Positions 9,705 to 34,547 are shown, counted from the stretch's first letter. The stretch is DNA of 40,000 nucleotides from Candidatus Uabimicrobium amorphum (GCF_009002475.1 NZ_AP019860.1:7769547-7809546), one strand, 5' to 3'. Notes: a model not told the origin generated them from the sequence alone. Numbers and translations are program-made.

Positions 9705-10478
9705 TTATCCACTCTCCACCATTGCATATGCTGAATGATTGTGTATGCTTTCAAAATTTTCAGATTCGACCCGATACCAAAGTATACGGGGGTCTTGATT
9801 TAGTAAGACGGCTGCATTTCGGACTAAATCTTCAACAAAAACAGGTTTATCATACGCTTTCTCAGTAACATATTTTTCATCTTCGCGTTTTAGTAATGTG
9901 TAAAGTGGAGAACTTGCTGAACTTTCAGCAATCTCTATTAGTTCCTCAATCCAAACAAAATCGGAATACTTTACTTGAATTGTAACTATCGCCCTTTGGT
10001 TATGTGCGCCATATTTGCTAATTTCTTTTGAGCAAGGGCATAGTGTTGTTACTGGAGTCTTTACTTGCAAGATATTGTTATATTGCTGATCTTGTTTACT
10101 ATAGCTTGCGATAAACGAACAATTGTAATCTAAGAGGCTCTTACGTTTAGAAACAGGAGCGATTTTGCTGATAAAGTAAGCAAAATCTATTTCAACATGC
10201 GCACAATCAGAATTGAGTTGGTCTGTCATTTTTCCTAAAAGTTGGTTTATATTTCTTAAGGTAACCTCTCCACGATATTCATTTAGTATTTCAACAAAGC
10301 GAGACATATGAGTACCTTTGAAATGATGAGGGAGATCTACATACATCGATATATTGGCAATGGTAGATTGGTACTCATTATTTTTGTCTAGCACTTCAAT
10401 AGGATAACGAAGATCTTTTACGCCTACTTTTTTAATAGGAATTTTTCGATTATCATGGCTATTTTGAACATCTCTCAT
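9705..10478 (-). CDS. folE2: GTP cyclohydrolase IB (FolE2 type)
   Basis: DNRKIPIKKVGVKDLRYPI, DLPHHFKGTHMSRF, TTLCPCSKEISKYGAHNQR are diagnostic FolE2/MptA-family motifs. AAGGAG SD precedes the ATG. Confidence 0.85.
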   Translation of the reverse strand: MRDVQNSHDNRKIPIKKVGVKDLRYPIEVLDKNNEYQSTIANISMYVDLPHHFKGTHMSRFVEILNEYRGEVTLRNINQLLGKMTDQLNSDCAHVEIDFAYFISKIAPVSKRKSLLDYNCSFIASYSKQDQQYNNILQVKTPVTTLCPCSKEISKYGAHNQRAIVTIQVKYSDFVWIEELIEIAESSASSPLYTLLKREDEKYVTEKAYDKPVFVEDLVRNAAVLLNQDPRILWYRVESENFESIHNHSAYAMVESG

Positions 10479-10632
10479 TGGTTTCTCCTTAGGTTTTTAA
10501 GTTTTTTATTTACAAAAATTATTGTCAATGGTTTAGCTATGATATTTACTTTGTTTATTAATTGACAAAAGTATTCTAAATAAATTTTCAAATAACTGCA
10601 TTATAAATATATAAACTTATTAAAAATAACTG

Positions 10633-10638
10633 TATAAT
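10633..10638 (+). promoter_or_regulatory. Candidate -10 box (TATAAT) for the dpdB/dpdA operon
   Basis: Perfect TATAAT 65 nt upstream of the dpdB ATG, in the 225-bp divergent AT-rich region. There is no convincing -35. In DNA this AT-rich, chance matches are likely. Confidence 0.2.
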
Positions 10639-10703
10639 ATAATTATATTTGTTTTTCGTAATTATTCCTAAATTAAATTCTTGTATAGATTGTAGAAAAC
10701 TAT

Positions 10704-11816
10704 ATGTCTAAAACACTCAAAGTGCGTACTCTTTGTACAAAACAAGATAAAACAACAATTTATTCTTTTTTTCTGCCAGGAAAACTCATACTTGAGATTG
10801 CTGATATTTCAAGAATAAAGAAAGATCAAAATGAAAAATTGTTAGGATACCAAAGAAATGAAGTTAACAATCATGTAAAAGAAATAGTTGAGTATTTAGA
10901 CTCAAAAAATATTATTTTTCCTAACTCCATCATTTTAGCTATATCTAGTGCTGTTTCTTTCAAGCAAAGTCGAGGACCTCAAGTTGGGGGCAATTATTGT
11001 ACTGCTGGAATTCTTGAAATTCCTAAGACAATTTCTGGCAAAAAACCTGCATGGATTGTAGATGGTCAACAGAGAAGTCTTGCACTTATGAAGTGCAAAA
11101 ATAAAAATTTAGTTGTTCCCATCACAGCATTCATAAGCGATGACTTCGAAGTTCATCGAACACAATTTTTACTAGTTAACAAAGTTAAACCCTTACCAAA
11201 AGGTTTGATCAATGAACTTCTTCCAGAAGTGAATACTCTTTTACCACCAAGTTTAGCAAAAAATAAAATTCCATCGGCAATATGTAATCTTCTCAATAAA
11301 GATCCAGAATCTCCATTCCGAGGTCTCATTATCAGGCAAACAACAGATAGAAAAATTGAAAAAGCAGCAGTCGTTACAGATAACTCCATTATTCAAATGG
11401 TAAGAAGTAGTTTGAACAATCCTCATGGATGTTTGTACCAATATAAAAACGTAGCCAGTGGCGAAATTGATTTTGAAAGTGTTAGGTTAACTCTAAATCT
11501 CTACTGGGGTGTTGTGAAAGATTTATTTCCTAATGCTTGGGGAAAACCAGCGACTCAAAGTCGTTTGATGCATGGTGTTGGGATAAAGTCTATGAGCGTT
11601 TTAATGGATAGAGTTATGGTAAGTCATACAATAAATGAAAAAAATTTACAGCAAACAATAAAACAGAAAATGTCCATCATACCACCTGTATGTGCCTGGA
11701 CAGAGGGAAAGTGGGAGCATTTAGGAGGCATTCAGTGGAATCATCTTCAAAATACATCAAGTCACATCAAATTACTTTCAAATATGCTTATTAGAGTTTA
11801 TATGGGGGTTAACTAA
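10704..11816 (+). CDS. dpdB: DGQHR-domain (DndB/ParB-like) protein, DpdB-like
   Basis: LLGYQRNEV, PAWIVDGQQRSLAL, QFLLVNKVKPLPKGLINELLP, RLMHGVGIKSM. The TAA stop is followed immediately by the GTG start of the DpdA gene. Confidence 0.75.
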   Translation: MSKTLKVRTLCTKQDKTTIYSFFLPGKLILEIADISRIKKDQNEKLLGYQRNEVNNHVKEIVEYLDSKNIIFPNSIILAISSAVSFKQSRGPQVGGNYCTAGILEIPKTISGKKPAWIVDGQQRSLALMKCKNKNLVVPITAFISDDFEVHRTQFLLVNKVKPLPKGLINELLPEVNTLLPPSLAKNKIPSAICNLLNKDPESPFRGLIIRQTTDRKIEKAAVVTDNSIIQMVRSSLNNPHGCLYQYKNVASGEIDFESVRLTLNLYWGVVKDLFPNAWGKPATQSRLMHGVGIKSMSVLMDRVMVSHTINEKNLQQTIKQKMSIIPPVCAWTEGKWEHLGGIQWNHLQNTSSHIKLLSNMLIRVYMGVN

Positions 11817-14111
11817 GTGAAATTTTTTTTTGCTGAAAATATAGATTATATTGATCCCAACTTTAATTTTGATACCGAAACTTGGTCGAAAAATAGAATT
11901 CCTCAAATTGATGATGTATATCCACATGAAGTATTTGAGACATGTCCGTATGATGGACTCTTGGTTTCTCGTAATATTGTAGGGGATTTATTTCATAAAG
12001 GAAAGTTTTCAACTAACCAAAAGTATCGCCTTTTTAGAGAAGGCGTTCATAAATATTTTAGGCTTCCAAAAACAAATTTTCCTGTCATCGGTGATTGTGG
12101 TTCGTTTTCATATATAAACATGGATTTACCTCCTTTTACTAATAATGAAATTATTGAGTACTATCAGATGTGTAATTTTACTCATGGAGTTTCTATAGAT
12201 CATGTTATCGCAAAAATGCAAACTGTTTGGGACAATGAGAAAAGGCGACCATCTGAAATTACTAAAAGAGCAGAGTTCTCTTCTCGAAGTGCTATAGAAT
12301 TTTTAAAAATTTGCCAAGCGAAAAAAGTTGACTTTACACCAATTGGAGCAGTGCAAAGTTGGAGTCCCAAATCTGCTGGTAAGTACGCAAAAACTTTAGT
12401 CGATGCCGGATATAAGTACATAGGGTTAGGAGGAATGGCTTATCAACCAACAGACTTTCTTTATGATGCTATTTCTGAAGTTCGTTCAAAGATCCCAAGT
12501 AATGTAAAATTGCACATTTTTGGTTTTAATAGGTTAGAGAAAATTGAAAAATTTACTGGTTTGGGTATTGATTCTTTTGATAGTACTTCCCCGATACTAA
12601 AAGCATTCAAAGATGAAGATGATAACTACTTCTTTGGTAAATCCAAAAGATATCGAGCTATTAGAATCCCCCAAGTTTACGAAAATATGGACATAAAGAG
12701 AAAAGTTCAGAGAGGTGTTATAAATCAAGACGTTGCATCTCAATTGGAACAAGATGCCTTGATGAAAATAAGAAATTATGCAAAAGAAAAGACTGGTTTA
12801 GAAGAATCATTAGAAGCAATAGTTACTTATGAAAACTATGTTTTTGGAAAAAGTTGCCGTCAAAAATATCGTAATGTACTTTATGAAAGTCCTTGGAAAA
12901 ATTGTACTTGCCCAATATGTAAGCAGTTAGGGATAGAAGTTATAATTTACAGAGGAACAAATAGAAATAAACGTAGAGGATTTCATAACCTTTTCCATTT
13001 CTACCAAGAACTTCAAAGGGTAAGAGAAATGAAACAACAAATTGTGGCACCGTGCATAAAAACAGAGCAGAGTCCAGGCAAGTATATATATTCATTTGTA
13101 GTGAATGGTAAAGACATCTCAAAATTTGCCTCTGTTTCGAGAGTTAAAAGAGGAGATAATGGAGATCTGTTAGGCTATCAGCGACCTGAGGTGATGCAGC
13201 ATATCCAAGAAATAAAGGAGTACATAGAAAGTGACAATTCAATACTTCCAAACTCTTTAGTTATTGCTTTTCAGAAGAACATTGATTTTTGTACTTGCGA
13301 AAAAATAAATGTTTACAGTGAACTGGGTAAGTTGACCATAAGCTATAGTGATAAAAATAAACCTGGATGGATTGTAGATGGTCAGCAAAGAGCAGCAGCT
13401 TTAAGAGTAGCAAATCAACCGAATTTTCCTATTTCGGTTGTTGCTTTCGTATCAAACGGAGAAAATGATGAAAGACAACAATTTGTTCTTGTAAATAATA
13501 CAAAACCTCTTCCAAAAAGTTTAATATATGAGTTACTACCAAGTTTTGAAGAACATGTACCAAGTAAACTAAAGACTAGGCGTGAAGCTTATATTATTCT
13601 TGAAAAACTTAATGTTGATAGAAATTCACCTTTTTATATGCGTATAAAAACAATGACTTATAGAGGAATAGAAACTGCGAATATAAAAGACATGTCTATC
13701 TTAAAAATGCTTGAAAATAGCCTTACCAACGGTATCCTTTTTAAGTATAGACATAATCCACAAAAAGTATCTGACATACTTCTAAATTATTGGAATGCTG
13801 TAAAAACATACTATTCAGATATATGGCATCTCCCTCCGAGAAGAAATCGGTTAACACATGGCGTTGGTATTGTAAGTATGGGATATCTCATGGATACTAT
13901 CTCATGGCGACTTATGAAGCGTGGAAAAGTTCCTTTATCTGAGAGATATTTAGATGAATTAAAAATTCTTGGTAAAGATGTTCCATGGAATAATGGTACT
14001 TGGAAGTTTAGTAAATCAATGATTTTACCATGGAATGAAATTCAAAATACAATAAGGCATATAGACATGGTCACCAATTTTTTATTAAGAAGGTACACTC
14101 ATAAAAATTAA
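11817..14111 (+). CDS. dpdA: DpdA-like DNA (7-deazaguanine) transglycosylase fused to a second DGQHR (DpdB-like) domain
   Basis: aa 1-400 are TGT-like: PVIGDCGSFSY, GVSIDH, GLGGMA, LHIFGFN, DSFDSTSP, and the zinc motif NCTCPIC...RRGFHN. aa ~415-764 are DGQHR: LLGYQRPEV, PGWIVDGQQRAAAL, QFVLVNNTKPLPKSLIYELLP, RLTHGVGIVSM. Confidence 0.8.
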   Translation: MKFFFAENIDYIDPNFNFDTETWSKNRIPQIDDVYPHEVFETCPYDGLLVSRNIVGDLFHKGKFSTNQKYRLFREGVHKYFRLPKTNFPVIGDCGSFSYINMDLPPFTNNEIIEYYQMCNFTHGVSIDHVIAKMQTVWDNEKRRPSEITKRAEFSSRSAIEFLKICQAKKVDFTPIGAVQSWSPKSAGKYAKTLVDAGYKYIGLGGMAYQPTDFLYDAISEVRSKIPSNVKLHIFGFNRLEKIEKFTGLGIDSFDSTSPILKAFKDEDDNYFFGKSKRYRAIRIPQVYENMDIKRKVQRGVINQDVASQLEQDALMKIRNYAKEKTGLEESLEAIVTYENYVFGKSCRQKYRNVLYESPWKNCTCPICKQLGIEVIIYRGTNRNKRRGFHNLFHFYQELQRVREMKQQIVAPCIKTEQSPGKYIYSFVVNGKDISKFASVSRVKRGDNGDLLGYQRPEVMQHIQEIKEYIESDNSILPNSLVIAFQKNIDFCTCEKINVYSELGKLTISYSDKNKPGWIVDGQQRAAALRVANQPNFPISVVAFVSNGENDERQQFVLVNNTKPLPKSLIYELLPSFEEHVPSKLKTRREAYIILEKLNVDRNSPFYMRIKTMTYRGIETANIKDMSILKMLENSLTNGILFKYRHNPQKVSDILLNYWNAVKTYYSDIWHLPPRRNRLTHGVGIVSMGYLMDTISWRLMKRGKVPLSERYLDELKILGKDVPWNNGTWKFSKSMILPWNEIQNTIRHIDMVTNFLLRRYTHKN

Positions 14112-14133
14112 GTAAAATAGTCCACTGTTTTAC

Positions 14134-14703
14134 CTAAAGATCTTTCGCCGACAATTTTCTAGCTCCTTTTAATTTTGCGACTAGTTGTATTTTATTACCA
14201 TTATACTCTGGGTGATCAAATGCAAAATAGTTTGCATTTTGTGACTGCCGATATAAACCACTATGAGTGTAATTCGTTGTCCCAGTTATTATTGCTAAAG
14301 GTGTAACCACTCCTTTAGCATGTAACTCTGGACATTCATATATACTTGCTTGATATCGTAGCGATTTTTTTAAAAAAGTTCGCTCATGCCAATATTTTTC
14401 TTTATCTTTGCTTAATCCTTTTTTTGAGAAACCGTATTTCAATATAGCTATATGAACTTTCCATTTTTGTTTGGAAAAGTGATAAATTAAGTCTAGTAAA
14501 CGTAAACTAGTTTCCCTATAACCAATTGTCAATTGTTGGTGCCAAACTCCTGGGGTTACTGTCAACTCAAAATTGGATATCCATGGAGAAATAATGAAAA
14601 GTTCTTTTTCATTTGGCATTTTTAGATTATTTTGAGCTGTATATAAATTTAGAGCAAGTATGTCCAATAATATTTTGGGTTCTAGCCATGTAACGTTGGG
14701 CAT
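14134..14703 (-). CDS. dpdK: Phospholipase-D-family (single HKD) nuclease, DpdK-like
   Basis: FIISPWIS and LHAKGVV...IITGTTNYTHSG (HxK...GxxN). Last gene of the minus-strand operon. AAGGA SD. Confidence 0.7.
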   Translation of the reverse strand: MPNVTWLEPKILLDILALNLYTAQNNLKMPNEKELFIISPWISNFELTVTPGVWHQQLTIGYRETSLRLLDLIYHFSKQKWKVHIAILKYGFSKKGLSKDKEKYWHERTFLKKSLRYQASIYECPELHAKGVVTPLAIITGTTNYTHSGLYRQSQNANYFAFDHPEYNGNKIQLVAKLKGARKLSAKDL

Positions 14704-14718
14704 TAATAGTCCTTCAAA

Positions 14719-17700
14719 TTAAAAATCCATGTGTGGGCGAATCCAAGGTTTTAGTAAAAATGTTGCATCCCATGATCGTCGAAAAACTCTCTCCCATCCA
14801 GCAGGAACGGAAGTAGGAATAATAACTAAGTGTTGGTTACCATTACAACTCATATCTGGCAAATCCAATTCGATTTGTGGAAAGTTTGGTAAGGTTTGTC
14901 CCATACAAGACGCAACAACTTGACCAAGATCTTCCCATAATATTGTATGAGCCATTTCTGTTCCTGGATAGCGTAGTCTAGTTTCAGGCTCTTCAGATGA
15001 GCAAATTAGGTAACGATATAGGGCATCAAGTACCAGTTTGTTTACAGTTTCCTGTGCGTTTAAACTACCATGGATGTTTTGTTCTGGCGATAAAATGCAT
15101 GAAATACAACCACTGATGCAAAACCCCATAGCTGATTCTAAAGACTGATAAACAGGATAGAACTCGCTCCCCACTAGTCTAGCATTTTGATAACATGAAT
15201 ATTCACTACTTACATAAGCAATAAACTCTGGACAGTACTGGAAAGGTAAAATATGATCAAAAGATTTCATACCAAATTCATTACGAAAAAATTCAAATAT
15301 TTTTCCTGCTATCTGTTTCTCTCCACGAACAGCGGTTTCCAAATCTTTAAACCAATCCTCTATACCTAAGTTATGAAAAGCTATATGTGTTGCGTGACTA
15401 CTTTCACATTCGTGTAAGGCTTCTTCAAAACAATGTGTGAAATCCATTGTTGGAAGTGGGTCTGGAGTGTTTTCTAGTGCACTAAGTTTTGATGTTAAAA
15501 CCCTTTCTATTGCTGTTATTAAAAAATGGTCACGAACAAGTTCAGAAGCACCGTTACCAAAAGCATCAGTATCAAAAAGATATATGTCTACTTTATCTTC
15601 TTCTAAAATACGATAAAAATAGCTTAACTCTTGGGCTTCTGCACCTGTTAAACGTAGAGCTGCAGAATGTATAGTCATTCCCAAAGAATTGATAAGAATA
15701 TCTAACGATTTTTCTTTGAAAAAATCGTTAGTAAGCAGGTTAATATTTGAACAAGCTTGTTCAAAATTACCATATGTGCTCATTAAAGAGTCACAGTGGG
15801 CTTGTACATTATTTGGTTCGTGTATTCTCGCGATTATATTGCAAATCTCTCGAAAAATTCTCCTGTCCAGAAAATTGGGATGTTCTTCAGTAAAACACCC
15901 AACCACTTCATCAAAAATTAGACTAAATGGTTCAGAAGCTTTCTTTTCCTCTGAATCAGAAGGATGCCACCTCACCATTAAGTGAAACAAAATTATAGTT
16001 CTCAAATTACGAACAGTAAACACCGACGGACGACTTTGATTTGCTAGCCATGGAGGTGCATCTGCAGCAGGAGGATCACAAGCATTTTCAGTTAAAAAAG
16101 CGTGTAAAACTTGAATAATGAGGGATTGGTAGACTACAGAGTTAGAATGTTGGTGTATTTCATTAATAAACATTCCAATTTTGGAATTTACTCCTGTATC
16201 TAACTGAAAAACTATGCCAGGTGCTTGATACTCGTGACCAATAGCTATTGGCGGATGACTTCCATCAGATTCTAATCCACGATAAACAAGGCGTGAAGCG
16301 TTAACTGTACGTGACATAAATTGGCGTTCTAATCCCCATGCAAATTCAGTAATTTTTAAATTTGGCTCGAAAGAAATATTATAAAATAATGATGTTGTTA
16401 GTGGTTGAGGAATACTAGGTAATTTTTTACTTGCGTATTTCTGAAAATAAGAAAAACGATCAGGAATAACTGAAGCTTTTTTTCCTTTGTTTATTCTATA
16501 CCATTTCAGTGGGTAACAACGTGGAGGAGTTGGTACGCTAATGATTCCATTATTATCTCCACTAACCCGGTCTCTACTATCCCCATCAGCCAACATGCCA
16601 TCCGAGATCTGTACAAGTGGCTCACTTGATGAAGTAATCACTCCAATTTGACGAGGAGTGTAAACTGTAATCTCGCCTGTACCAACAAAGCCAGGGGGAA
16701 GATCCTGTGGTAGTAAATTTGAACAAACCGTTGGCTCAAAATATTCTGCATTATCTACGCATAAATAAACTCCCTGAACTCTGGGAATAACCGCATTGGG
16801 AAAACCCTGAGCAGCTAATTGACTAACTGGTACCTTACGTGGAGAAGAGGAGTAACGATATGTAATTGTACCTGGAAGAAGTAGAGATATTGCTAATGAA
16901 ACGGTTTCATATCCTAACTCGCGCTGTTGCCCATTGACCATTTCAAACACTCGAACCGTTTCGTTTCCAGATGCTTCAAATAGATTTGGAGGCCATAAAT
17001 AGGGCTGATTGCTAGGAATATTTTTTTCTGGTACCCCTCTTCTAAATATCACTGATGAGAGTAAATTCCACAGATAACTTCGGTGAAGTGAAGCATTGGG
17101 TGTTTGACCCGGCGGAACTTTATCATATGTTTGTAAAAAACGTTCATGTCTACCTAAAGATCCTGGTAAATTACGAGTAGGTGGTTCATACTTAGAAGCG
17201 CAAATTTCAGCTAATGTAGGGTTTCCTTGAATTGGTAAAGGCGTTAGAAAAAAATTAGGTCCAAATTCGTGTTGGAAAACATCAATGACTCCCACTTTCC
17301 TTGCTAGAGGGGCATCGGCTGAAGTTAACTCGCTTACCTCTGTTGGATTAGATATCTCATGAGTTTTTGCACCTAGATCTGTTAAATAGATTTTTAAATT
17401 TTTCAGATTTTCTTCTTTACATGGATGATTTCCAAAAAGAAAATTATAAACGGCTTCCACTTTCTTATCCCACCGAGAAAAAGAACGATCATATTGATGA
17501 TCATTAATCAGGTTTATTCGGTGTCCATCATTTTGAATACGTGAATTGTTTGGCCCATCATTTTGCAAACATAAAAAATCAATAATTGCCATAAAAAAAT
17601 GATGGCATGCAATAATACGGTTATCTTCATGAAAAGGTATTGGTTGCAAATAGTCGGGGTCTAGGGCAATTTGAGGATTTCTAAAATAATACTGATCGCG

Positions 17701-20229: not shown

Positions 20230-20238
20230 TTTCGCCCC

Positions 20239-20937
20239 CTATTTTCTAGTGACCAAGTAAGCCTTTGCTCGCTCATCCTTTTGAAGCCAATTGATAATTT
20301 TTGGTTCATTAAGTACCTTGTGTAAGGAAATACCACCTTTACGAATACTTGTTATAAACTTTTGTACTTCTTCGTCTAACTTTTCCCATTTTTCGCAAAT
20401 GTCACTAAGTTCGTTTTTTACTTCTTGCAATGTATTTACATCTTCAATATCAGCAGGTAATTTGTTTACCTGTTCGAGTAAAGTATCATATAATTGCTTT
20501 ACTTTTGGCTGATTTTCTTCTGGATCTTCCAGGACTTCTTCCACTAAAGTTTTTATATTTTTTGGTAAATCTATGTATGAACGCCAATTTTTTTGTAACG
20601 TTGTTTCTATTTCTCCTAGAGTATTTTTGAATTCTTGAGAGTTAAAGCCCTTGTGCTCCAGGATAACACTGGAGATGTTAGCATTTTCTAAAATCTTGCT
20701 AATTTGCTTACGTCTTTGTTTTAGTTTGCGTTTATTGATGTCTAATTCACAATAACTAGATAGAATAGAATAGTGATGTACAAGTTTATGCGCTTGAAGG
20801 TTTATTGCATCTATCTCTTTAAAACGTTTTTTTAATTTTTCTATCTCTTCGCTAACTTCTCTATGATTTTGATACAATTTAACTTTATTTTTAAAATCTT
20901 TAGCAATATCTACTATGTTTGGCCTTGTATCTGACAT
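20239..20937 (-). CDS. dpdI: Coiled-coil hypothetical protein in the DpdI position
   Basis: 232 aa, K/E-rich heptad-like sequence, GGAGGA SD. The symbol comes from gene order only. Confidence 0.35.
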   Translation of the reverse strand: MSDTRPNIVDIAKDFKNKVKLYQNHREVSEEIEKLKKRFKEIDAINLQAHKLVHHYSILSSYCELDINKRKLKQRRKQISKILENANISSVILEHKGFNSQEFKNTLGEIETTLQKNWRSYIDLPKNIKTLVEEVLEDPEENQPKVKQLYDTLLEQVNKLPADIEDVNTLQEVKNELSDICEKWEKLDEEVQKFITSIRKGGISLHKVLNEPKIINWLQKDERAKAYLVTRK

Positions 20938-23930: not shown

Positions 23931-24773
23931 TTAGACCTTTCCAAGTTTCACAAAAGCTATTTTTTCTCCAAAACTAGTTCGCAAAAATTTTCTTTGGTCA
24001 TCGGGACACCAATACTCTATTTTTTTCTGCAGTTTCAAACGTTCTAAACCAAAAGAAGTTGCTTCGCAAAGCTTGTCATCTGGCCACTCATTTTCCATAT
24101 TATTCAATACCGTTTTTCGAACTTCCCCACCATCAAGGACGGGACATAATTTTCCCAAGCGTTTACGAAATTTATGAGCGGTTACTTCTTCATCTCTATT
24201 TACTAGTTTATCTATGTGTCTTGTAAAAAAAAGAGTTGGGTCTAGAAATACACCTTTTATTCCCTCATCTTTTATCTTTTTTATAAGTCCAAGATATTTC
24301 ATCCAGTAAATGATCATATCCCATCGTTGATCGTTACGAAGACCAAAATCGGAGATATCAAAGCCTTGTTTATTAAAAGTGTTTTTAAATTCGTCATAAC
24401 TTTGTGGTAGTTCTAAAACAGGTTGTGCCAGTATCCACGCGCAAATTTGAGCAAACAAATTAGTTGTTCCTCCAACCTCTGGAGATAAAGCTCTGGAAGC
24501 CATTGTAATTGGAAATGTTTTGTCGATATTATCTGTATCCTGACACAATTCATCAGATAATTTATATAGAATTCCATCTTTTTCTACCAAGCCGCATTCC
24601 TCGCAAGCTGATAAAGTCCGAGTAACTTGTATAGGGGTTTTATCTTGGGTTTGAGCAGTGGGATAGAGCAGTGCCACTATTTCGTTTTTTGGCAGAGGAC
24701 TCGATATTTTTAATAGCTTTATCACCGCTAGCATACGGCTAGGAACAGGTTCCGGTTGTTTGTATATTTTCAT
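23931..24773 (-). CDS. dpdG: Winged-helix-containing hypothetical protein in the DpdG position
   Basis: ATGA start/stop overlap with the upstream helicase gene (24770-24773), so I start at Met16 of the track ORF (MKIYKQPEP). The N-terminal segment NEIVALL...VTRTLSACEECGLVEKDGILYKLSDEL looks like a wHTH. The symbol comes from order only. Confidence 0.4.
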   Translation of the reverse strand: MKIYKQPEPVPSRMLAVIKLLKISSPLPKNEIVALLYPTAQTQDKTPIQVTRTLSACEECGLVEKDGILYKLSDELCQDTDNIDKTFPITMASRALSPEVGGTTNLFAQICAWILAQPVLELPQSYDEFKNTFNKQGFDISDFGLRNDQRWDMIIYWMKYLGLIKKIKDEGIKGVFLDPTLFFTRHIDKLVNRDEEVTAHKFRKRLGKLCPVLDGGEVRKTVLNNMENEWPDDKLCEATSFGLERLKLQKKIEYWCPDDQRKFLRTSFGEKIAFVKLGKV

Positions 24774-27271: not shown

Positions 27272-30200
27272 AAAAACTTTTCAGATAAAACATATACCCC
27301 GATTGCATCAACTGATATATTTGGATTTTTTAATACTTGAGATACTAAACTATGCAATGAATAAAGTTTACATATATCAGAGTCGATGGCTAAATTACTA
27401 TCTATACCACTTTGAGATCGTGCAATTAGACGTGCCTTGTTGATGGTAAAGTATTCTTCGGCTGAAAGCAAAGCTTTGCTACTAGTTGTTTTTAATTTAT
27501 CACTAGTGGAAGTTTTTTTAAGAGCTTTTTCCGTAATTTCCTGGCATAATAACTTCCATCTTTCTTCCCCAAACCAGTTTTTAAGATATGTAGCTTTTTC
27601 TTTTCCCATGTTTATATCAGGGGGAGCTTTGTAAGGTTTTTTACAAATTTCGATTAAATCCAATTTCGCAATTTCTCCCTCTACGTCTAAGAATAATTCA
27701 TAAAGATATTCGTTAAACCACCCCTTTATCATTCGTAATAATCCGCCGCGAGCAATATCATCCCAATCATGTTCATTTAAAAATTTAATTATTGGATCTA
27801 AGTTTGGATATACATTAAGGATTATTCTGAAAATAATACAAGGATCTATTCTTCCATAACACTTGCGCCATAATACAAAGCAACGCCCTCGATCATCTTT
27901 CTTTAGAAGTTCATGACATATATCGAGACCTCTATGTCCAGGTCGAAAAAATTGAAGCCCTGAATTTCTTATAGTTGCAACATTTCGAATAGAGGTTCCT
28001 TCTTGAAACAAACTTTGCATTTCATCTAGATAATTGAATGGGATTAGAGGTTCTTTACGTTTAGGCAATGTAAACTTAAATGTGTCACGATTTACTTTAA
28101 TAGGCCGCAAACCAACATTATCTTTTAAGTAACTAATTAATGCTTTTGATAAAGTTTTGTTTTTAACCTCTTCGTTATCCCCCATGTCTAAGTTTTTAAA
28201 CATTTCGTTTACCTTGCGTAACGTATACATTCCATCAACAACATCTTGCTCTACTATTCGCAGTCGTTCTTCCTCGATTTTAGATTTAAGCTCACCTATT
28301 GCAGAGACTAATGCACTGGGACCACCTTCAAAAGTACGCTGTTTTAAATAGGGCATCTGTTCGTCTATTAAAAACTGTATATCAGAAACAGAGTCGTTAA
28401 AAATTCCGTACCCCTCAACTAGTAGTCTACGCCAAGCATCATCGACAGCAAGTTCTTCATTGTCTAGAGTAACAATAACTTTACACGGTATGTTTTCTGT
28501 ACGACTGATACGGTCTAAACGTCCTAAACGTTGCTCTATACGCATCGGTGACCAAGGGATATCAAATAGAATTATACCAGTAGCAAAATGTAAATTTACT
28601 CCCTCTTCTAATGAGGAATCTACAATCAGAAAGCTATTTCGGTTGCTCTTTTTAAAGCCTTGAATGATTTTTTGACTGTACTCCGCCGACATTTGTTCAT
28701 GGAGTACATACAAATGATTTTTGAAAGTTTTTTTCAAACGTTCCTCAATTTTATTGCACAATTCTACAGTCGAACAAAACACTACATATTTTTGTAAAGT
28801 TTTCTTAGAATTAAGTTGTTTGAGAATTTCTTGTATTAGAAAGATTCTATCTTCAGGCCATTTTTTTTCAACGGCATCACACATTTTTTGTAGAATATAT
28901 GCCCCTTCTTGCTTTGGATTATCGACTAATAGTTTCTTGATTTTTTTAGACAGTAACATTGTATCGCTAGCTATAATCTCTGAGATTTCAAAATAAAGAT
29001 CTATGTTTTTTTGTAAATCGATTTGTTGACTAATGTTACTTGCTACTTCTATACGCCAATTTTCAAGATTTTCCCAAAGAAATTCAAGAAGTTCATCGTT
29101 AAGTTCAAACTCATAACTTAATGCTACTTTACGCGAACATAAACCGTGATCTTCTGTCATCCATGCTCGACGTGTTCTTAACATCCGACGATGAATACGA
29201 TAAGTTTCGCTTATGTGGATTTGTAAAGATTTTACTACTTTTATGATGTCATCTTTTTTAGCTTCGTATACTTGATTTACTAAACTAGAAATGGTCTTAT
29301 CTCTTGGCAAAATCACAGACAACTTCTTCGCATGCCTTTTAAGTAAAAGAGGGTTTTTTGCTTTAGATAAAGCTAGAAGTACACGTCCTATTTCCTGTCG
29401 TTTTGCAAGGCGTTCTCTAAATACCTCAATGTGTTCCAATTGATATGTTTCTGGAGTGAGTAAATGAAGTAGAGCTAAAAGTTGCGATTCGCAGTGCAAA
29501 ACTGGAGTAGCAGAAAGTAATAAAATATGCCTTGTTTTCTTAGCTAGTTTACAAAATGCTTCATACAGAGGCGCTTTCTCCGAACTAGACTTTTTAGCGG
29601 TAACTATTCGGTGCGCTTCATCTACTACAACTAAATCTAACTGGCTGTTAGAGTTAGTTAATAAATCATTGTGTTCAACAACTGATATATTTGTAATAGA
29701 AAAACGTCTTTTTAATTCCTCTTTCCATTGCCAAACCAATGCTGTGGGAACATAAATCTTTATCATCGTTTGTGGAGAATCCAGAAGCACTTGTTTTAAA
29801 ATTATCCCTGTTTCGATTGTTTTTCCTAAACCGACTTCATCAGCAAGTAGATAGCGTATATTAGGATCTCGTAAGATACGAGATGCTATTTCTATCTGAT
29901 GAGAAAATAATTCCACTTTGCTGGATGTGAAGCTAGTAATTCCTTCACACAGTTGACGATGGTATATCAGTTGTTCTAAAAGTTTATATCTTTGATGGAA
30001 AAAAAAAGGTGTTCCTTGAACAAGTTCTTCTAACATTTTTTCTGGACTAGATGGCCAGCAAGATCGGACTTGAAAATCATCTTCGCGAAATTCGATTGGG
30101 GCTTTTTGATTATCAAATGTGATCTGGTAACTTCTAAAGTTTTTATCTTCATTACTACATAATAAAATGCGTCCGTATGACACATTTTCATTTGTTTGAA

Positions 30201-30405
30201 AGCAGCATGTTTGGCGGGGGATCATCTGGTAAATTAGCTGTGATTTGTGAATTTGTATAGATTCAAAATGAGTTGGACTAATAAAGAAATGTACCTCTAC
30301 TATTCCATCCACACCTGGGTAACAATAAATATTTCCAAAACCAAGTTTTTCTTGCCCTTTAATTAGAACTTTTTTTCCTGGGATGGGTTCCACACTAAAC
30401 TCCAA
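27256..30405 (-). CDS. dpdE: SNF2-family helicase/translocase, DpdE-like
   Basis: LLADEVGLGKTIETG, LVVVDEAHRI, LLLSATPV, EGVNLHFATGIILFDIPWSPMRIEQRLGRLDRI. The track start is TTG. GTG at 30391-30393, six nt after GGAG, is a plausible alternative start. Confidence 0.65.
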   Translation of the reverse strand: MEFSVEPIPGKKVLIKGQEKLGFGNIYCYPGVDGIVEVHFFISPTHFESIQIHKSQLIYQMIPRQTCCFQTNENVSYGRILLCSNEDKNFRSYQITFDNQKAPIEFREDDFQVRSCWPSSPEKMLEELVQGTPFFFHQRYKLLEQLIYHRQLCEGITSFTSSKVELFSHQIEIASRILRDPNIRYLLADEVGLGKTIETGIILKQVLLDSPQTMIKIYVPTALVWQWKEELKRRFSITNISVVEHNDLLTNSNSQLDLVVVDEAHRIVTAKKSSSEKAPLYEAFCKLAKKTRHILLLSATPVLHCESQLLALLHLLTPETYQLEHIEVFRERLAKRQEIGRVLLALSKAKNPLLLKRHAKKLSVILPRDKTISSLVNQVYEAKKDDIIKVVKSLQIHISETYRIHRRMLRTRRAWMTEDHGLCSRKVALSYEFELNDELLEFLWENLENWRIEVASNISQQIDLQKNIDLYFEISEIIASDTMLLSKKIKKLLVDNPKQEGAYILQKMCDAVEKKWPEDRIFLIQEILKQLNSKKTLQKYVVFCSTVELCNKIEERLKKTFKNHLYVLHEQMSAEYSQKIIQGFKKSNRNSFLIVDSSLEEGVNLHFATGIILFDIPWSPMRIEQRLGRLDRISRTENIPCKVIVTLDNEELAVDDAWRRLLVEGYGIFNDSVSDIQFLIDEQMPYLKQRTFEGGPSALVSAIGELKSKIEEERLRIVEQDVVDGMYTLRKVNEMFKNLDMGDNEEVKNKTLSKALISYLKDNVGLRPIKVNRDTFKFTLPKRKEPLIPFNYLDEMQSLFQEGTSIRNVATIRNSGLQFFRPGHRGLDICHELLKKDDRGRCFVLWRKCYGRIDPCIIFRIILNVYPNLDPIIKFLNEHDWDDIARGGLLRMIKGWFNEYLYELFLDVEGEIAKLDLIEICKKPYKAPPDINMGKEKATYLKNWFGEERWKLLCQEITEKALKKTSTSDKLKTTSSKALLSAEEYFTINKARLIARSQSGIDSNLAIDSDICKLYSLHSLVSQVLKNPNISVDAIGVYVLSEKFFWKKI

Positions 30406-30407
30406 TT

Positions 30408-32621
30408 TTATTGCGTTGCTTGCTTAAATTCCTGGAAAAATACATGGGTATTGTGGAATCCTCTACGACGGTTGCGGTTATTTCCACGGAAAATGGCAAC
30501 TTCTATACCATTTTTTTCGCATATCGAATTATTTGTCGTTTTCCATGGGCAGTCCCTTAATAGTTCCTCATATAAACGCTCGTGCTTTTCTCTGTTGTCT
30601 CCGACAAATTGATCATACTCCAGAACATACTTTAATGTCTCTTCGAGAGATAGTGATCCTTGGTCAAAATTCCTCAATGCTTTCAGTGCTGCTTTTTCTA
30701 ATTTAACAAATTCTTGTAAACACCCACGTTCTTGTTCTAACATCTTTTTTATTCTAGGATTACCGATCTTTGCTTGAGGTACTCTAATCGCACTATATCT
30801 TTTATCGTAAGTAGACCAAAAGTTGTCACGTGCACTTAACCAAGCGCGCCTTAACTGCGATGCGCTATCACAACTGTAAACTCCAAGGTTGATAAAATTT
30901 GAAATAGCGTCCAGGCGTCCTATCCCAAATAAATGTATTCGAGTTTCTGGCTTTCTTATTTTATCAATAGAGGTTAATATTTCAATAATTGTTTCTGTTT
31001 GACTACGGACTAAACTACCCAGAGCAATATAACTATAGCCTAGTTGTTGATATTCCTCGAACATCTTAGTGTAGGAATCAGCATCCCATCCTTGACAAGC
31101 AGCAATAGGTTTAAAGTTGTATTTTTTTTGTTTGTATAAATTTATAAACTCTTTGCCATGGTCAAGTGTAATTTGCCACCTTCTCTTTGCTTCTGAAAAA
31201 TCAAACTCTGTTTTTTGATAAGTACAAAGTCGATTATCGAACAAATCAGAAGATTTTGGAGGAGATTTTACTACACGATACTTTTTATCTTTTGAAATAG
31301 ATTCGAATTTATCTTTTGAGATAGGTTCATAATTACCATTTTTATTCTCAACCCAATATGTTTTTCTTTGGCATACGCTTGGAACAATCAAATGATCAAT
31401 GGTAACTCCATAATTAAAATCTAATCTTTCATAATAATCAATAATTTCCTCTGTTGTATAAGGTGGATTATACTCATTTAGGTAACCAAAAGCGCCACAA
31501 TCTCCCATCACTGGAACTTCTTTTGGACATCGAAGATATGCATGAATACCTAAAGATTCAACCAGTTGTTTCTTTTTTTTACTTTCTTCAATAGTCACTT
31601 TTGAAACTAATATGCCATCGTAATTGTATTGTTTCATCAATTCATGTGAATAATAGTCATCACGATAAGAATCATGTTGCAGGCCAAAAAGTTCTGAGTA
31701 GTGAAAATCATTAATGAAATCATAACGTGGATCTACACGATCATCCCATTCTGGTATAAAATAGAGCATTTTTGCGTCTTTTCTTGGAGTGTAAGCAATT
31801 TCTACTCGTTTTGGTGGTTTGTAATCCGTAGGTAACCCTAAACGTAACTCAAATGGGCATTTTTCAGACAATTTATATCCTTTTGGCAAGTTACCCAAGT
31901 CTTTATCCTTCTTATGTTGAGAATTGTTTGCTTTTCTCATCGTATTTAAAATAGTGACTATTTCTTTGGGTTGTTTTTTCAATGTATTTAAAATGTTTGT
32001 TTTTTGACATACATGCTGGGCAAATCTTTTAAAGATTTCTCCTTTTAAGCCAACCAAACCACAATGAAAATCTTTAGCCTCTTGAATACTTGTTGGATAA
32101 ATTGTTCCATTGGAGCCGTTAAGCTGTTTTTCTTGTGAACAGAAAAAAATTAATGGTATAGAAAACTGTTCATTTTTTTCAATTTGTAAAGACCTTAAAT
32201 ATTTTTTCCCCAGTAATACAATACCTAAATCGTATTTTCCTAACACAGAACGAAAATCTTTTGGTATTTTTAGTAATTTTGACCACTCATCAATTTCTTT
32301 GGCTTTCATAGTATCGAAAGTACATTCATAGGGTACAATTTCTTTATTACTTCCTATAAAACCATAGCCAGCTGAAACAATCCATAGATCTACATTAGCT
32401 TGTTTTTCCCTTAATTTTTTTATCCCCTTCATTAATCGTATGTGCTGCTCTCCTGTATACATATTCTCAGCAGTACATTTATAATTATCTAGCTTTTCAG
32501 TTTTTGATTTTAGCAGTTCTGGTTGTTTAAAATCTTCTTGCACGAGCTGGTTATCGGGTTTCGATGCTTTTTTTCCTGTGCACGAAGTAATCACTAGTAA
32601 TTTGGGTAAGTCTTTTTGCAT
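30408..32621 (-). CDS. Second DpdA-like transglycosylase paralogue with an N-terminal YaaA(DUF328)/DUF6884-like domain
   Basis: aa ~285-737 are collinear with the other DpdA: PVMGDCGAFGY, GVTIDH, IHLFGIG, SCDSAS, RYSAIRVPQ, GIEVAIFRGNNRNRRRGFHN. aa 1-250 carry LLVITSCTGKK and IVSAGYGFIGSNKEIVPYE. It sits directly upstream of dpdE. Confidence 0.7.
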   Translation of the reverse strand: MQKDLPKLLVITSCTGKKASKPDNQLVQEDFKQPELLKSKTEKLDNYKCTAENMYTGEQHIRLMKGIKKLREKQANVDLWIVSAGYGFIGSNKEIVPYECTFDTMKAKEIDEWSKLLKIPKDFRSVLGKYDLGIVLLGKKYLRSLQIEKNEQFSIPLIFFCSQEKQLNGSNGTIYPTSIQEAKDFHCGLVGLKGEIFKRFAQHVCQKTNILNTLKKQPKEIVTILNTMRKANNSQHKKDKDLGNLPKGYKLSEKCPFELRLGLPTDYKPPKRVEIAYTPRKDAKMLYFIPEWDDRVDPRYDFINDFHYSELFGLQHDSYRDDYYSHELMKQYNYDGILVSKVTIEESKKKKQLVESLGIHAYLRCPKEVPVMGDCGAFGYLNEYNPPYTTEEIIDYYERLDFNYGVTIDHLIVPSVCQRKTYWVENKNGNYEPISKDKFESISKDKKYRVVKSPPKSSDLFDNRLCTYQKTEFDFSEAKRRWQITLDHGKEFINLYKQKKYNFKPIAACQGWDADSYTKMFEEYQQLGYSYIALGSLVRSQTETIIEILTSIDKIRKPETRIHLFGIGRLDAISNFINLGVYSCDSASQLRRAWLSARDNFWSTYDKRYSAIRVPQAKIGNPRIKKMLEQERGCLQEFVKLEKAALKALRNFDQGSLSLEETLKYVLEYDQFVGDNREKHERLYEELLRDCPWKTTNNSICEKNGIEVAIFRGNNRNRRRGFHNTHVFFQEFKQATQ

Positions 32622-32643
32622 ATCAATCGCTTTCGTGAGTAAC

Positions 32644-33351
32644 TTATTTTATCGATATCTTAAAAGGGTTATAGTTTACTTTAGAGTCGTATTGGTCAAC
32701 GCCTTCTTTTCTTTTTAGAAAGTTTACTGCCATGTATGTAAAAGGCGTTACGATAATTTCATATAAACACTTAAATATCCAGGCCGAAATCATAGCACTT
32801 ATTAAGATGTTTTTAGGCAGAATACCAATGTATGCAATGCTTATGAAACAGATTGTATCAACACCTTCTCCAAACAATGTCGAGATTACAGTTCTGAGCC
32901 ATAAGTGTCTACCATCACTCCATACTTTCATTTTTGACATAATAGTACTATTAACTATTTCTCCTAACCAATAACCAACCAAAGATCCAAGCACTATCCG
33001 AGGTATAAATCCATGGATTATGGCAAATTGATCTTGGTAAGACCAATTATGAGCTGGCGGTAAAATAACTGCTATAGTAAGAAATGAAACCATAAACACA
33101 TTAGACAGCAAACCTAACCAAATTAATCTTCTAGTTCGTTTATAACCATATACTTCAGTGAGTACATCTCCAATAACATAGGAGATCGGAAAAATTAAAA
33201 TGCCAGCGCTAAAAATAGCACTTCCAAGACTAAATAATTTTACAGCAGCAATATTTGAAACTAAGAGGGTAACTATAAAAGCTATACCAACTATGTCCAA
33301 ATGCTTTGGATGCCATTCGTCTTCGGAAGTTATTTTTTTTACCTCGTTCAT
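32644..33351 (-). CDS. yhhQ: YhhQ/DUF165 (VUT family) 7-deazaguanine (queuosine precursor) transporter
   Basis: Polytopic membrane protein with VSNIAAVKLF, IFPISYVIGDVLTEVYGYKRTRRLIWLG, RIVLGSLVGYWLGEIVNS, STLFGEGVDTICFISIAY. AGGAG SD. Confidence 0.85.
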   Translation of the reverse strand: MNEVKKITSEDEWHPKHLDIVGIAFIVTLLVSNIAAVKLFSLGSAIFSAGILIFPISYVIGDVLTEVYGYKRTRRLIWLGLLSNVFMVSFLTIAVILPPAHNWSYQDQFAIIHGFIPRIVLGSLVGYWLGEIVNSTIMSKMKVWSDGRHLWLRTVISTLFGEGVDTICFISIAYIGILPKNILISAMISAWIFKCLYEIIVTPFTYMAVNFLKRKEGVDQYDSKVNYNPFKISIK

Positions 33352-33360
33352 TGTTCTCCT

Positions 33361-34371
33361 TTAGTAGGCAGTCGTTGGGGTAATATGATGAGGAAAATCT
33401 ACACTTTGTGCTCCAAACCATTCATGAGCGTCAAGGTTGGCAATGCTCCAGTAGCGACTATCATCAGCCTTTAATCCGCTGTTTAGCTTTTCTAAAATTA
33501 AACTATTGGCAACTGTTGTTGCAGCTCTGATTTCTATTTCCATTTGTTGATGTGGAAGTATTATTTGTTGCTTTTCAATAATTTTTTTGAGGTCATCTTG
33601 ATAATTTAAAACACCTACACTATTGAGGTATTGTGGAACTCTATAGTCTTCTACAGCTATAATTTCATTAAAGTTTGATAGCGGCTTTAATTGACTATTA
33701 GTTTTAGATGACCGCCCTTGATATAGAAGAATTGCTAATTTTGCTTTCTTAAAAAATGGGAACTGTAAAGTTTTTTGTGTTGTATATATATGTGAAATAT
33801 CCTGAAAAGACATAGGGAAATATTGAATTAGCTTATCTAATAGTAACAGAGCATCCCAGTTAGAATCTTCATATAAGTTGATTGGGTCGCCATTAAATTT
33901 TTCATCTAAAACAGTTATTAACTCCTGGATTATCCAATGTCTATACTCTAGCATGGGAATCTGGACTACCCCCGTAAAGAATTCTTTAGTCGCATCTTGG
34001 CTACAAAATACTTTTTTTAAATTTTTGCTTGTGATATTTTTCTCACCAAATGTACGGAAAAAACAGCGAAACATGGCCATTGCACCTTTGTAGCTCGTTT
34101 CACTCTCTTTTATAGTAAAAGCTTGCTCTGGTTTTTGAAGATCCATATAACAAAAATTAATAGCTGATGTTATAATTGCAAATCTTGCAAATGCAAAATC
34201 ATCTTTAGGATGAATATTTTCAAAATCCCAATATACTTGTTTTTTGGGTAACGTTTTTAGTGTGTCAACATACTTATCAATACATGTTGGATTGACGTCT
34301 ACGAATTTTACAATTTCTTTTTTCTTCAACCATTTCCAGTTTTCGATAATTTTTTCAGCGTAAATTTCCAT
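33361..34371 (-). CDS. qng1: Queuosine salvage protein (DUF2419/Qng1 family, queuosine-5'-phosphate N-glycosylase)
   Basis: AINFCY, FPFFKKAKLAILLYQ, IIAVEDYRVPQYLNSVGVLNYQDDLKKII...MEIEIRAATTVANSLILEKL and C-terminal FPHHITPTTAY. These are collinear with human QNG1/C9orf64 as I recall it: [22 protein letters not shown]...EVEIRGCS...IPFHRIRCIYY. The track start is TTG at 34380. I prefer ATG at 34371. Confidence 0.8.
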   Translation of the reverse strand: MEIYAEKIIENWKWLKKKEIVKFVDVNPTCIDKYVDTLKTLPKKQVYWDFENIHPKDDFAFARFAIITSAINFCYMDLQKPEQAFTIKESETSYKGAMAMFRCFFRTFGEKNITSKNLKKVFCSQDATKEFFTGVVQIPMLEYRHWIIQELITVLDEKFNGDPINLYEDSNWDALLLLDKLIQYFPMSFQDISHIYTTQKTLQFPFFKKAKLAILLYQGRSSKTNSQLKPLSNFNEIIAVEDYRVPQYLNSVGVLNYQDDLKKIIEKQQIILPHQQMEIEIRAATTVANSLILEKLNSGLKADDSRYWSIANLDAHEWFGAQSVDFPHHITPTTAY

Positions 34372-34547
34372 TTTTACCAACCAGTTTTAAAATTAAAAAA
34401 TAAACATTCTATTCTATCCCGAATGTAACTAAAAAGCAAATTGCACTGTTAGTCAGTTTAAAATTTTCAACAGTAGTGGAACCAAATATAGCGTTTTGTC
34501 AAGACAAAGTAGTTGTTAATCTATAGCTTTTGTGCAACAGTAGTAAT

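Follow-up and report, generated by a model that had tools for sequence, protein, structure and literature searches.

The dpdA-K system of Salmonella Montevideo, said to have been described by Thiaville et al. in 2016, is the type system for the locus described here and the only dpd island to have been studied biochemically. In this system DpdA needs DpdB, and DpdC acts separately: the stand-alone protein works independently of DpdA and DpdB and takes the nitrile of 7-cyano-7-deazaguanine (preQ0) in DNA as its substrate (PMC10164549). We examined a 40-kb stretch of DNA from Candidatus Uabimicrobium amorphum, a planctomycete that engulfs prey cells (PMC11032199); this whole stretch is referred to as the window, and all positions follow its numbering. 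Judged by its sequence, the window carries an intact Dpd island that represents a fused-gene variant of the known system. We consider it likely that this is an intact 7-deazaguanine restriction-modification island with two different modification machineries and one restriction operon, in which a 737-aa fusion of a DpdC-like domain to a second DpdA (DpdA2) would serve as a self-contained enzyme that both inserts the base and converts it. What the sequences show directly is which genes and domains are present, that catalytic residues are conserved and how the genes are arranged in relatives.

Architecture of the island

The island comprises 13 intact open reading frames (ORFs) in two units and extends exactly from the folE2 stop codon to the Q_salvage start codon (9705-34380). 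In unit 1, folE2 on the minus strand diverges from dpdB1 on the plus strand across a 225-nt intergenic gap, and dpdB1 is followed by dpdA1-dpdB2 with no base between them. Unit 2 consists of ten minus-strand genes running from 34380 down to 14134, with junctions of -49 to +22 nt, in the order Qng1-like gene, yhhQ, the 737-aa fusion, dpdE, dpdF, dpdG, dpdH, and the genes for a 232-aa coiled-coil protein, an 1836-aa DExH helicase and a 189-aa phospholipase-D (PLD) nuclease. The two units are convergent and separated by a 22-nt spacer. The ten-gene operon is deduced from gene spacing alone, since scans for regulatory signals gave no support: promoter-like sites at the module boundaries were fewer in a sigma-70 scan than in shuffled sequence, and a terminator scan returned none at the convergent junction of the units. 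The 737-aa fusion and the 764-aa dpdA1-dpdB2 product are 100% identical to Candidatus Uabimicrobium amorphum proteins encoded on a 9.5-Mb contig.

Family scores are given as bits/curated cut-off for NCBIfam and Pfam; PADLOC models were also run. Ten Dpd-related domains in eight proteins score above their NCBIfam cut-offs, with E-values ranging from 1e-31 to 1e-236, which excludes chance for the Dpd family matches. The first-pass annotation of this DNA had proposed a rearranged Dpd-type island rich in gene fusions, and this description stands, with DpdA, DpdB and DpdE to DpdH all passing the model cut-offs. Also borne out are the two tRNA-guanine transglycosylase (TGT)-like DpdA domains, the two DGQHR/DpdB domains, the presence of FolE2, YhhQ and Qng1, the fusion of the modification DpdA to a second DpdB, and the position of salvage genes at the head of the restriction operon, where the Qng1-like gene and yhhQ are the first of the ten tightly packed genes.

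The DpdC-DpdA2 fusion and the modification machinery

The N-terminal domain of the 737-aa protein (aa 1 to ~235; 31917-32621, minus strand) is DpdC-like, matching Pfam DUF6884 at 38.2/30 over residues 43-157 and the PADLOC DpdC models at 52.5 bits (E = 1e-14) over residues 7-112. DUF6884 is the Pfam family of DpdC (PMC12235509); it is akin to YaaA/DUF328, the family to which DpdC was originally assigned (PMC5699537), and its members are marked by two motifs, CxxxK and LSAxxG (PMC11701544). In the fused domain these motifs read SCTGKK and VSAGYG, and they are invariant across the fusion family. Both are also displayed by the stand-alone DpdC of a planctomycete metagenome-assembled genome (MAG; locus L089), as STCSNKK and ILSAGWG, and by Enterobacter DpdC, as TTCTNGK and ILSAGLG, when its ORF is extended past the annotated start in the upstream direction. 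The latter gene lies upstream of dpdA on Enterobacter cloacae pPOL9A (L096 18980-19954), where a 283-aa 'hypothetical protein' is DpdC-like; its start codon has probably been called too far downstream, since the CxxxK motif lies upstream of the annotated start. A structure model of the isolated window domain is confident, with a predicted local distance difference test score (pLDDT) of 90.4. From its motifs and family matches, dpdC appears not to have been lost from the island, being fused instead to the N-terminus of the second DpdA. The first-pass annotation had recognized no stand-alone dpdC or dpdD; both are indeed missing, but dpdC is present in fused form.

A linker (aa 237-283), of low confidence and disordered in the model, joins the DpdC domain to DpdA2 (aa 284-737; 30408-31772, minus strand; NCBIfam DpdA 420/200). 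The AlphaFold2 model of the 737-aa protein displays two confident domains (pLDDT 92.8), and Foldseek places DpdA2 on the S. Montevideo DpdA structure 7ui4 with E = 9e-37 and a template modelling (TM) score of 0.89. In the Salmonella enzyme, Asp95 acts as general acid/base and Asp256 as nucleophile, Asp130 and His181 recognize the base and Phe99 stacks (PMC10164549). Sequence alignment of DpdA2 with 7ui4 (E = 3e-73) indicates that D95 (in GDCG), F99, D130 (in IDH) and D256 are retained; the position of His181 is Gln in both DpdA1 and DpdA2. Following the Asp130 strand, DpdA2 carries an insertion of ~61 aa (aa 413-474; window 31200-31385), which the model confidently folds into a small subdomain rich in beta structure. 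This insertion is absent from DpdA1 and S. Montevideo DpdA in the alignments; about half of the fusion proteins have it, the rest having 4-7 residues instead. DpdA2 and DpdA1 share 31% identity. In a neighbour-joining tree (no support values), canonical DpdA and the DpdA1 domains form one group, and the other contains the DpdA2 domains of the fusions and two stand-alone second DpdAs, from loci L090 and L091, a topology that assigns the DpdA1 and DpdA2 domains to two apparent lineages.

DpdA1 is itself part of a fusion, encoded in unit 1 by dpdA1-dpdB2 (11817-14111, plus strand; 764 aa). Its DpdA1 part (aa 1-405, nt 11817-13031) matches NCBIfam DpdA at 478/200 over aa 1-401, and its DpdB2 part (aa 406-764) matches DpdB at 400/300 over aa 411-756. 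DpdA1 aligns end to end with 7ui4 (E = 1e-96) and retains D95, F99, D130, D256 and the CxCxxC..H zinc motif. The preceding dpdB1 (10704-11816, plus strand) encodes a stand-alone DGQHR/ParB-like ATPase partner of DpdA with 370 aa (NCBIfam DpdB 430/300; PADLOC DpdB 455 bits). DpdB1 and the DpdB2 domain are 37% identical, and the motif IVDGQQR is found in both as well as in Enterobacter DpdB. The DpdA-DpdB fusion is rarer than the DpdC-DpdA fusion: it occurs in ~60 full-length protein clusters, of which the named sources are Planctomycetes/Verrucomicrobia and the others are unassigned metagenomic contigs. By homology, DpdA1-DpdB2 together with free DpdB1 is best regarded as the form that the canonical DpdA/DpdB pair takes in the Planctomycetes-Verrucomicrobia-Chlamydiae (PVC) clade. 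Divergent from these genes lies folE2 (9705-10478, minus strand), encoding GTP cyclohydrolase IB (NCBIfam NF010200 300/215; Pfam GCHY-1 334 bits), which would catalyse the first step toward preQ0; folE2 also adjoins the modification module in L005, L008 and L091.

The DpdC-DpdA fusion is encoded in 259 of 185,579 species-representative genomes, with hosts that include Cyanobacteria, Paenibacillus, Bacillus, Chloroflexota, Desulfobacterota, Bacteroidota, Planctomycetota, Verrucomicrobiota, Deinococcota and an Asgard MAG. Among the matches listed, more than 110 of 120 protein clusters cover at least 97% of the 737-aa query at ~38-45% identity, and the closest reach up to 74%. The Prokaryotic Genome Annotation Pipeline names the fusion proteins simply 'DpdA'. 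Neighbourhoods were counted for the best 80 other fusion loci, for which flanks of up to 10 kb were stored, full flanks being available in 47 of the 80. Within these flanks, dpdE and dpdF accompany the fusion at 12 of 80 loci, downstream in most, and dpdE, F, G and H at 10; in Leptolyngbya the fusion is followed by dpdE, F, G, H and I. A second TGT-like region is present at 17 of the 80 loci, FolE2 at 9 and YhhQ at 3. A first tblastn screen had led us to call DpdB 'nearly absent' near fusions. This statement was softened when a DpdB/DndB hidden Markov model (HMM) raised the number of loci with any DpdB/DndB-like ORF within the flank to 14 of 80 (10 of the 47 with full flanks). None of these 14 ORFs is fused to DpdA, and no DpdA-DpdB fusion lies within the flank at any of the 80 loci. 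At most fusion-bearing loci the fusion is the only full-length DpdA, so that it must be the modifying enzyme there.

The arrangements in relatives of the island offer a closer view of the role of the fusion. In the Planctomycetes MAG L089, DpdC, DpdB and DpdA-DpdB follow one another in this order. In L091 a second DpdA precedes DpdC, DpdB and DpdA-DpdB, and in both L091 and L090 (Akkermansiaceae) the stand-alone second DpdA lies just upstream of a stand-alone DpdC. In L097, DpdC-DpdA, DpdB and DpdA-DpdB are contiguous on one strand, with the fusion occupying the slot that DpdC has in L089. The closest relative of the window, L005/L006 (73-82% identity over the DpdA, DpdB and DpdC domains), encodes a Qng1-like protein, DpdC-DpdA, DpdA-DpdB, DpdB, FolE2, QueC and QueE beside an integrase and a D5-type primase, and has none of dpdE-K. 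L007/L008 brings together the fusion, three DpdB domains, DpdA-DpdB, a genuine DpdD and dpdE-K. Several related contigs, mostly of the PVC clade or unassigned, share a module with two DpdAs, two DpdBs and one DpdC.

The first-pass annotation had seen in the fusion a second DpdA joined to another domain in the dpdD slot. The joining of two domains is confirmed, the added one being DpdC-like, but the dpdD slot is not fixed: in the canonical Enterobacter cloacae pPOL9A island, dpdD is the last gene, after dpdK. A restriction-side function, with the fusion taking the place of DpdD either as a sensor or as an effector that would excise unmodified guanines from incoming DNA, agrees with its place heading the dpdE-K operon, where 2 nt separate it from dpdE, with the same position at 12 of 80 loci and in Leptolyngbya, and with the absence of DpdD from the window. 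Two observations weigh most heavily against it, namely the occurrence of the fusion in L005/L006, where dpdE-K are missing, and its contiguity with dpdB and dpdA-dpdB in L097. In addition, L007/L008 possesses the fusion and DpdD together, and at most loci the fusion, as the only full-length DpdA, has to be the modifying enzyme. We therefore regard a restriction-side function as highly improbable. Since the fusion is contiguous with dpdB/dpdA-dpdB in L097, is found without dpdE-K in L005/L006 and has a stand-alone DpdC as its counterpart in the same slot of L089 and L091, its synteny identifies it as a predicted part of the modification machinery, not as an alternative to DpdD.

For this modification machinery we hypothesize the following course of events. 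By analogy with S. Montevideo, DpdA1 would swap guanine in DNA for preQ0, driven by the ATPase activity of the two DpdB units. DpdA2 would insert preQ0 without DpdB, as suggested by the fusion lineage mostly having no DpdB nearby. The fused DpdC domain, again by analogy with S. Montevideo, would hydrate the preQ0 nitrile in DNA to the amide (the amido form, ADG). It would probably also act in trans on preQ0 laid down by DpdA1, since no other DpdC is encoded in the island; that a single DpdC domain serves both writers is plausible because stand-alone DpdC acts independently of DpdA and DpdB. YhhQ would import 7-deazaguanine bases and the Qng1-like enzyme would free them from nucleotides, and as both genes share an operon with the restriction genes, supply of the mark would be tied to restriction expression. 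DpdE-K presumably attack DNA lacking the mark. All enzymatic activities, the ability of DpdA2 to act without DpdB, the identity of the base and the phenotype of restriction are what we infer from the genes and their arrangement. More tentatively, the fusion might constitute a second kind of Dpd writer that is DpdB-independent and inserts and converts in one polypeptide, and which together with the DpdA/DpdB writer could give two layers of marks, distinguished by target motif, by preQ0 versus ADG or by both, and read by a single dpdE-K machine. Still more speculative is the idea that the co-operonic Qng1-like protein and YhhQ feed the DpdC-DpdA2 writer with bases from engulfed prey.

Several observations weigh against the proposed self-contained enzyme and the intact island around it. 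The DpdB-independence is read from absence within at most 10 kb, where many loci are truncated and only 47 of the 80 have full flanks. The DpdC-like domain is distant from enterobacterial DpdC (pairwise E = 2e-7 over 52 aa), and its closest relatives include many stand-alone proteins of ~230 aa without known function. A Foldseek search with the DpdC-domain model returned no significant solved homologue; YaaA (5caj), which has the best TM-score among the top-ranked matches, reaches E = 0.013 and TM 0.40. The DpdI-, DpdJ- and DpdK-like genes fall below curated cut-offs, and DpdD was not found among the 24 window proteins (ORFs of at least 100 aa) scanned against NCBIfam including its DpdD model, which we take to be NF041061. 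The window contains none of queC, queD and queE. Finally, DpdA2 is without two of the three zinc cysteines, the region reading TTNNSIC...H at aa 688-737 (window 30408-30560), and loss of the zinc site may leave the enzyme impaired.

The altered zinc site raises the question whether DpdA2 is an inactive or merely DNA-binding relic, with only the DpdC domain at work and DpdA1/DpdB making all insertions. In that case the fusion would amount to the DpdC of this island, equipped with a targeting module. In favour of a relic, the CxCxxC motif is kept in 44 of 46 aligned fusion proteins, the two exceptions being the window protein and its closest relative P0002 (ESISPIC), both from islands that also have DpdA1-DpdB2, and plain DpdC fills the same slot in related PVC islands. 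However, the three catalytic aspartates and the stacking Phe of DpdA2 are intact, and confidence in the AlphaFold2 model stays high where the zinc site used to be. CxCxxC is kept in two further islands that have both DpdAs (fusion P0004 of L007 and that of L097), and L090 and L091 retain stand-alone second DpdAs. Between the window and L005, DpdA2 (73% identity) is as conserved as the other domains (DpdC 73%, DpdA1 75%, DpdB2 76%, DpdB1 82%), for which reason we regard it as probably functional despite the lost structural zinc site. Taken together, these features make a relic unlikely, and an active insert-and-convert fusion remains our preferred interpretation.

Restriction genes, precursor supply and surroundings

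The restriction genes follow the fusion on the minus strand. dpdE (27256-30405) encodes an SNF2-family helicase of 1049 aa (NCBIfam DpdE 715/500; motifs GLGKT and DEAH), dpdF (24770-27271) a RecQ-like DEAD/DEAH helicase of 833 aa (NCBIfam DpdF 788/550; motifs GSGKS and DEAH), dpdG (23931-24818) a protein of 295 aa (NCBIfam DpdG 110/80; PADLOC DpdG 35 bits) and dpdH (20941-23928) a large P-loop NTPase of 995 aa (NCBIfam DpdH 478/450 over aa 11-967; Walker A GDSGTGKS). The three remaining genes are named DpdI-, DpdJ- and DpdK-like on account of position, size and weak homology to Enterobacter pPOL9A proteins. The dpdI-like gene (20239-20937), between dpdH and dpdJ, encodes the 232-aa coiled-coil protein; it has no NCBIfam or PADLOC match and only spurious coiled-coil matches in Pfam. 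Its C-terminal 44 aa weakly resemble the pPOL9A protein located between dpdH and dpdJ (E = 4e-5), and Leptolyngbya has a 233-aa gene after dpdH. The dpdJ-like gene (14719-20229) encodes a giant DExH (YprA-family-like) helicase of 1836 aa that matches DpdJ in its N-terminal part only (NCBIfam 92/800; PADLOC DpdJ 103 bits) and aligns with Enterobacter DpdJ in three collinear segments (best E = 4e-10; motif II is DEIH). Helicases similar to it are found near the fusion in 18 loci, and a DpdJ/DpdK-like pair is located near the fusion in some loci. The dpdK-like gene (14134-14703), the last of the operon, encodes a small single-HKD PLD nuclease of 189 aa (NCBIfam DpdK 42/100; PADLOC DpdK 42.7 bits) that is 22% identical to its Enterobacter counterpart over the HxK region (E = 4e-5) and has the motif LHAKG.

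The restriction set dpdE-K named in the first-pass annotation thus holds firmly for DpdE to DpdH, and the order fits throughout, but the assignments of the last three genes are weak. An 817-aa ORF outside the island (36596-39049) was considered as DpdD and rejected, as it has only a weak TraD-like match. The relatives L008 and L090 carry DpdD, and many published dpd islands are also without it (PMC12235509).

Other partner genes occur beside fusions elsewhere. In Desulfosporosinus (L001 14772-17766), Paenibacillus (L002 12120-15096), Picosynechococcus and Nostoc (L093, L094), the neighbours of the fusion are an unannotated 400-aa protein with a DUF87/HerA-like ATPase, UvrD and PD-(D/E)xK genes and, at some of these loci, also a small (~310 aa) second TGT between two DEAD-box helicases. 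DpdB is absent from all four, and the neighbours appear to be a different, undescribed set of restriction partners. In L005, the interval from the fusion to dpdA-dpdB, which dpdE-K occupy in the window, holds two unannotated genes of 298 and 277 aa (13135-14869); the 277-aa gene has a faint Endonuclease VII match, and the pair could be a minimal alternative effector. Matches to DUF6884 and DpdA were also detected in the Candidatus Hodarchaeota MAG L073 (Asgard), with FolE2 upstream, and on many haloarchaeal plasmids (H6-H14), where the two are adjacent or fused. These archaeal matches may be the BRIGADE systems of bioRxiv 10.1101/2025.09.15.676423.

Two genes of the predicted supply of precursor open unit 2. 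The first (33361-34380, minus strand) encodes a Qng1-like (Q_salvage/DUF2419) 7-deazaguanine nucleotide N-glycosylase (Pfam Q_salvage 114.7/25), which aligns with the S. thermophilus Qng1 structures 7uk3/7u07 (E = 8e-17) and conserves the catalytic Asp231 in EDYRVPQ (residue according to PMC9881137); its substrate may be Q-5'-phosphate or another 7-deazaguanine nucleotide. The second, yhhQ (32644-33351, minus strand), encodes a VUT-family 7-deazaguanine precursor transporter of 235 aa (NCBIfam TIGR00697 113/51; Pfam Vut_1 171 bits); a VUT gene also lies upstream of the fusion on Paenibacillus plasmid pART37. The Qng1-like protein has only five close homologues (46-65% identity; L098-L100 clade), the next matches being at 25-29%, of which the two named ones are insect QNG1. 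One homologue, 48% identical, sits beside MiaA-like and MnmA tRNA-modification genes and not beside dpd genes, which suggests that this small clade would have an ordinary role in tRNA-queuosine salvage outside the dpd context. The Qng1-like gene was considered as a general dpd component and rejected, given its absence from the 80 other fusion loci and the homologue among tRNA-modification genes; its distribution marks it as a probable lineage-specific recruit.

The same genes bear on whether DpdA2 might insert a different salvaged 7-deazaguanine, such as preQ1 or queuine freed by the Qng1-like enzyme and taken up through YhhQ, so that the island would write two marks. Such an activity would fit the Qng1-like gene and yhhQ lying directly upstream of the fusion (gaps of 9 and 22 nt), the Qng1-like gene adjoining the fusion, again upstream, in L005 too, the conserved catalytic Asp and the engulfment of prey cells, a source of queuosine, by the host (PMC11032199). 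On the other hand, the domain fused to DpdA2 is DpdC-like, and the known DpdC substrate is the preQ0 nitrile in DNA (PMC10164549); the island moreover has folE2, and its closest relative encodes QueC and QueE. With the Qng1-like gene found at none of the 80 other fusion loci and its 48%-identical homologue located among tRNA-modification genes, we judge insertion of a different base by DpdA2 to be very unlikely. The first-pass annotation had also considered that the DNA base may differ from that of the described system. The main argument for this no longer holds, since the fused DpdC-like domain is predicted to encode the chemistry for the amido form, and in the sequences examined nothing points to a base other than preQ0/ADG.

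The island is flanked by two further gene groups. Directly beside it, on the minus strand (35015-39049), lie a gene for a Replic_Relax/MarR-like protein (525 aa) and that for the above 817-aa protein with its weak match to the TraD coupling protein. These neighbours suggest that the island may lie in or next to the remnant of a mobile element; no tRNA genes that could act as integration sites were found in the window. On the other side, a six-gene cluster of unusual fusions (756-8446, minus strand) includes a 932-aa glycosyltransferase-2 fused to GTP cyclohydrolase II (RibA, 164 bits) and a 400-aa protein in which an N-terminus resembling NDP-sugar dehydrogenase is joined to a NADAR domain. 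The latter protein matches riboflavin-intermediate N-glycosidase at 140 bits and, weakly, 'NADAR anti-phage' at 85/240. The cluster further encodes an AsnB-type amidotransferase, a DUF4145 protein, an arylamine-type N-acetyltransferase and a DUF4915/TIGR03032-like protein. It was considered as part of the island and is treated as separate because an ORF on the opposite strand lies between them and the cluster is absent beside dpd genes in relatives.

Comparison with known Dpd systems

All components of the island come from known families, and public annotation already names most of them. Nor is the architecture unique, given the DpdC-DpdA fusion in 259 species-level genomes and the DpdA-DpdB fusion in ~60 protein clusters. 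In the literature searched we found no description of the DpdC-DpdA lineage or of its mostly DpdB-free contexts, an earlier mention in the 2016 discovery paper being possible, and none of the PVC module of two DpdAs and two DpdBs or of the loss of zinc ligands. The latest census, of 2,335 dpd islands, called for both dpdA and dpdB; it lists no Planctomycetota and one member of the Verrucomicrobiota without restriction genes (PMC12235509), and so missed this diversity. What emerges is a second DpdA lineage that is permanently fused to a DpdC-type domain in at least 259 species, usually with no DpdB nearby, and that PVC bacteria combine with the first lineage in one module. As natural fusions, the two proteins constitute Rosetta-stone evidence for physical coupling of DpdA to DpdB and of DpdA to DpdC. 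They also offer compact constructs for asking whether 7-deazaguanine insertion can proceed without the DpdB ATPase and whether having two writers leads to two target motifs. This locus does not make the mechanism by which DpdE-K restrict DNA more accessible.

Compared with the S. Montevideo Dpd system, the island has DpdA, B, E, F, G and H above NCBIfam cut-offs, the same catalytic residues in DpdA, a DpdC-family domain and the same gene order dpdE-F-G-H-I-J-K. It differs in having two DpdA lineages, with DpdA1 fused to a second DpdB and DpdC present only as a fusion to DpdA2, which is without two zinc ligands. It further differs in the lack of DpdD, in the strongly diverged DpdI-, DpdJ- and DpdK-like genes, and in the Qng1-like gene and yhhQ being co-operonic with the restriction genes. 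Genes for the preQ0 pathway and YhhQ are likewise located near many dpd islands (PMC12235509). DNA transglycosylases of the TGT family that do without DpdB are also found in phage DpdA (PMC6884629, PMC10516641), haloarchaeal BRIGADE (bioRxiv 10.1101/2025.09.15.676423) and a BREX-related capture with TGT (PMC12839542), but these systems have other restriction or effector sets and no dpdE-H operon.

The DUF6884-DpdA fusion islands of Cyanobacteria, Bacillota, Chloroflexota, Desulfobacterota and others share full-length, collinear homology with the window fusion at 38-45% identity. There too, the fusion often lies directly upstream of dpdE-H, YhhQ is encoded upstream on pART37 and DpdJ/DpdK-like pairs occur nearby. 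In contrast to the window, they have no DpdA-DpdB fusion (0 of 80) and mostly no DpdB, they keep the zinc cysteines, and some have the 400-aa protein with the DUF87/HerA-like ATPase or a small second TGT. The PVC-clade dpd modules (L089-L091: a Planctomycetes MAG, an Akkermansiaceae MAG and a metagenomic contig) resemble the window in DpdB1 and DpdA1-DpdB2, at 41-65% identity, and two DpdA lineages are present in L090 and L091 as well as in the fusion-bearing L097 and L007/L008. These modules have either a stand-alone DpdC or a contiguous trio, whereas the window fusion lies ~16 kb away and heads the restriction operon. With a module that recurs in the PVC clade and a fusion placed before dpdE, mirroring the arrangement of many cyanobacteria, the island looks like a combination of two Dpd lineages.

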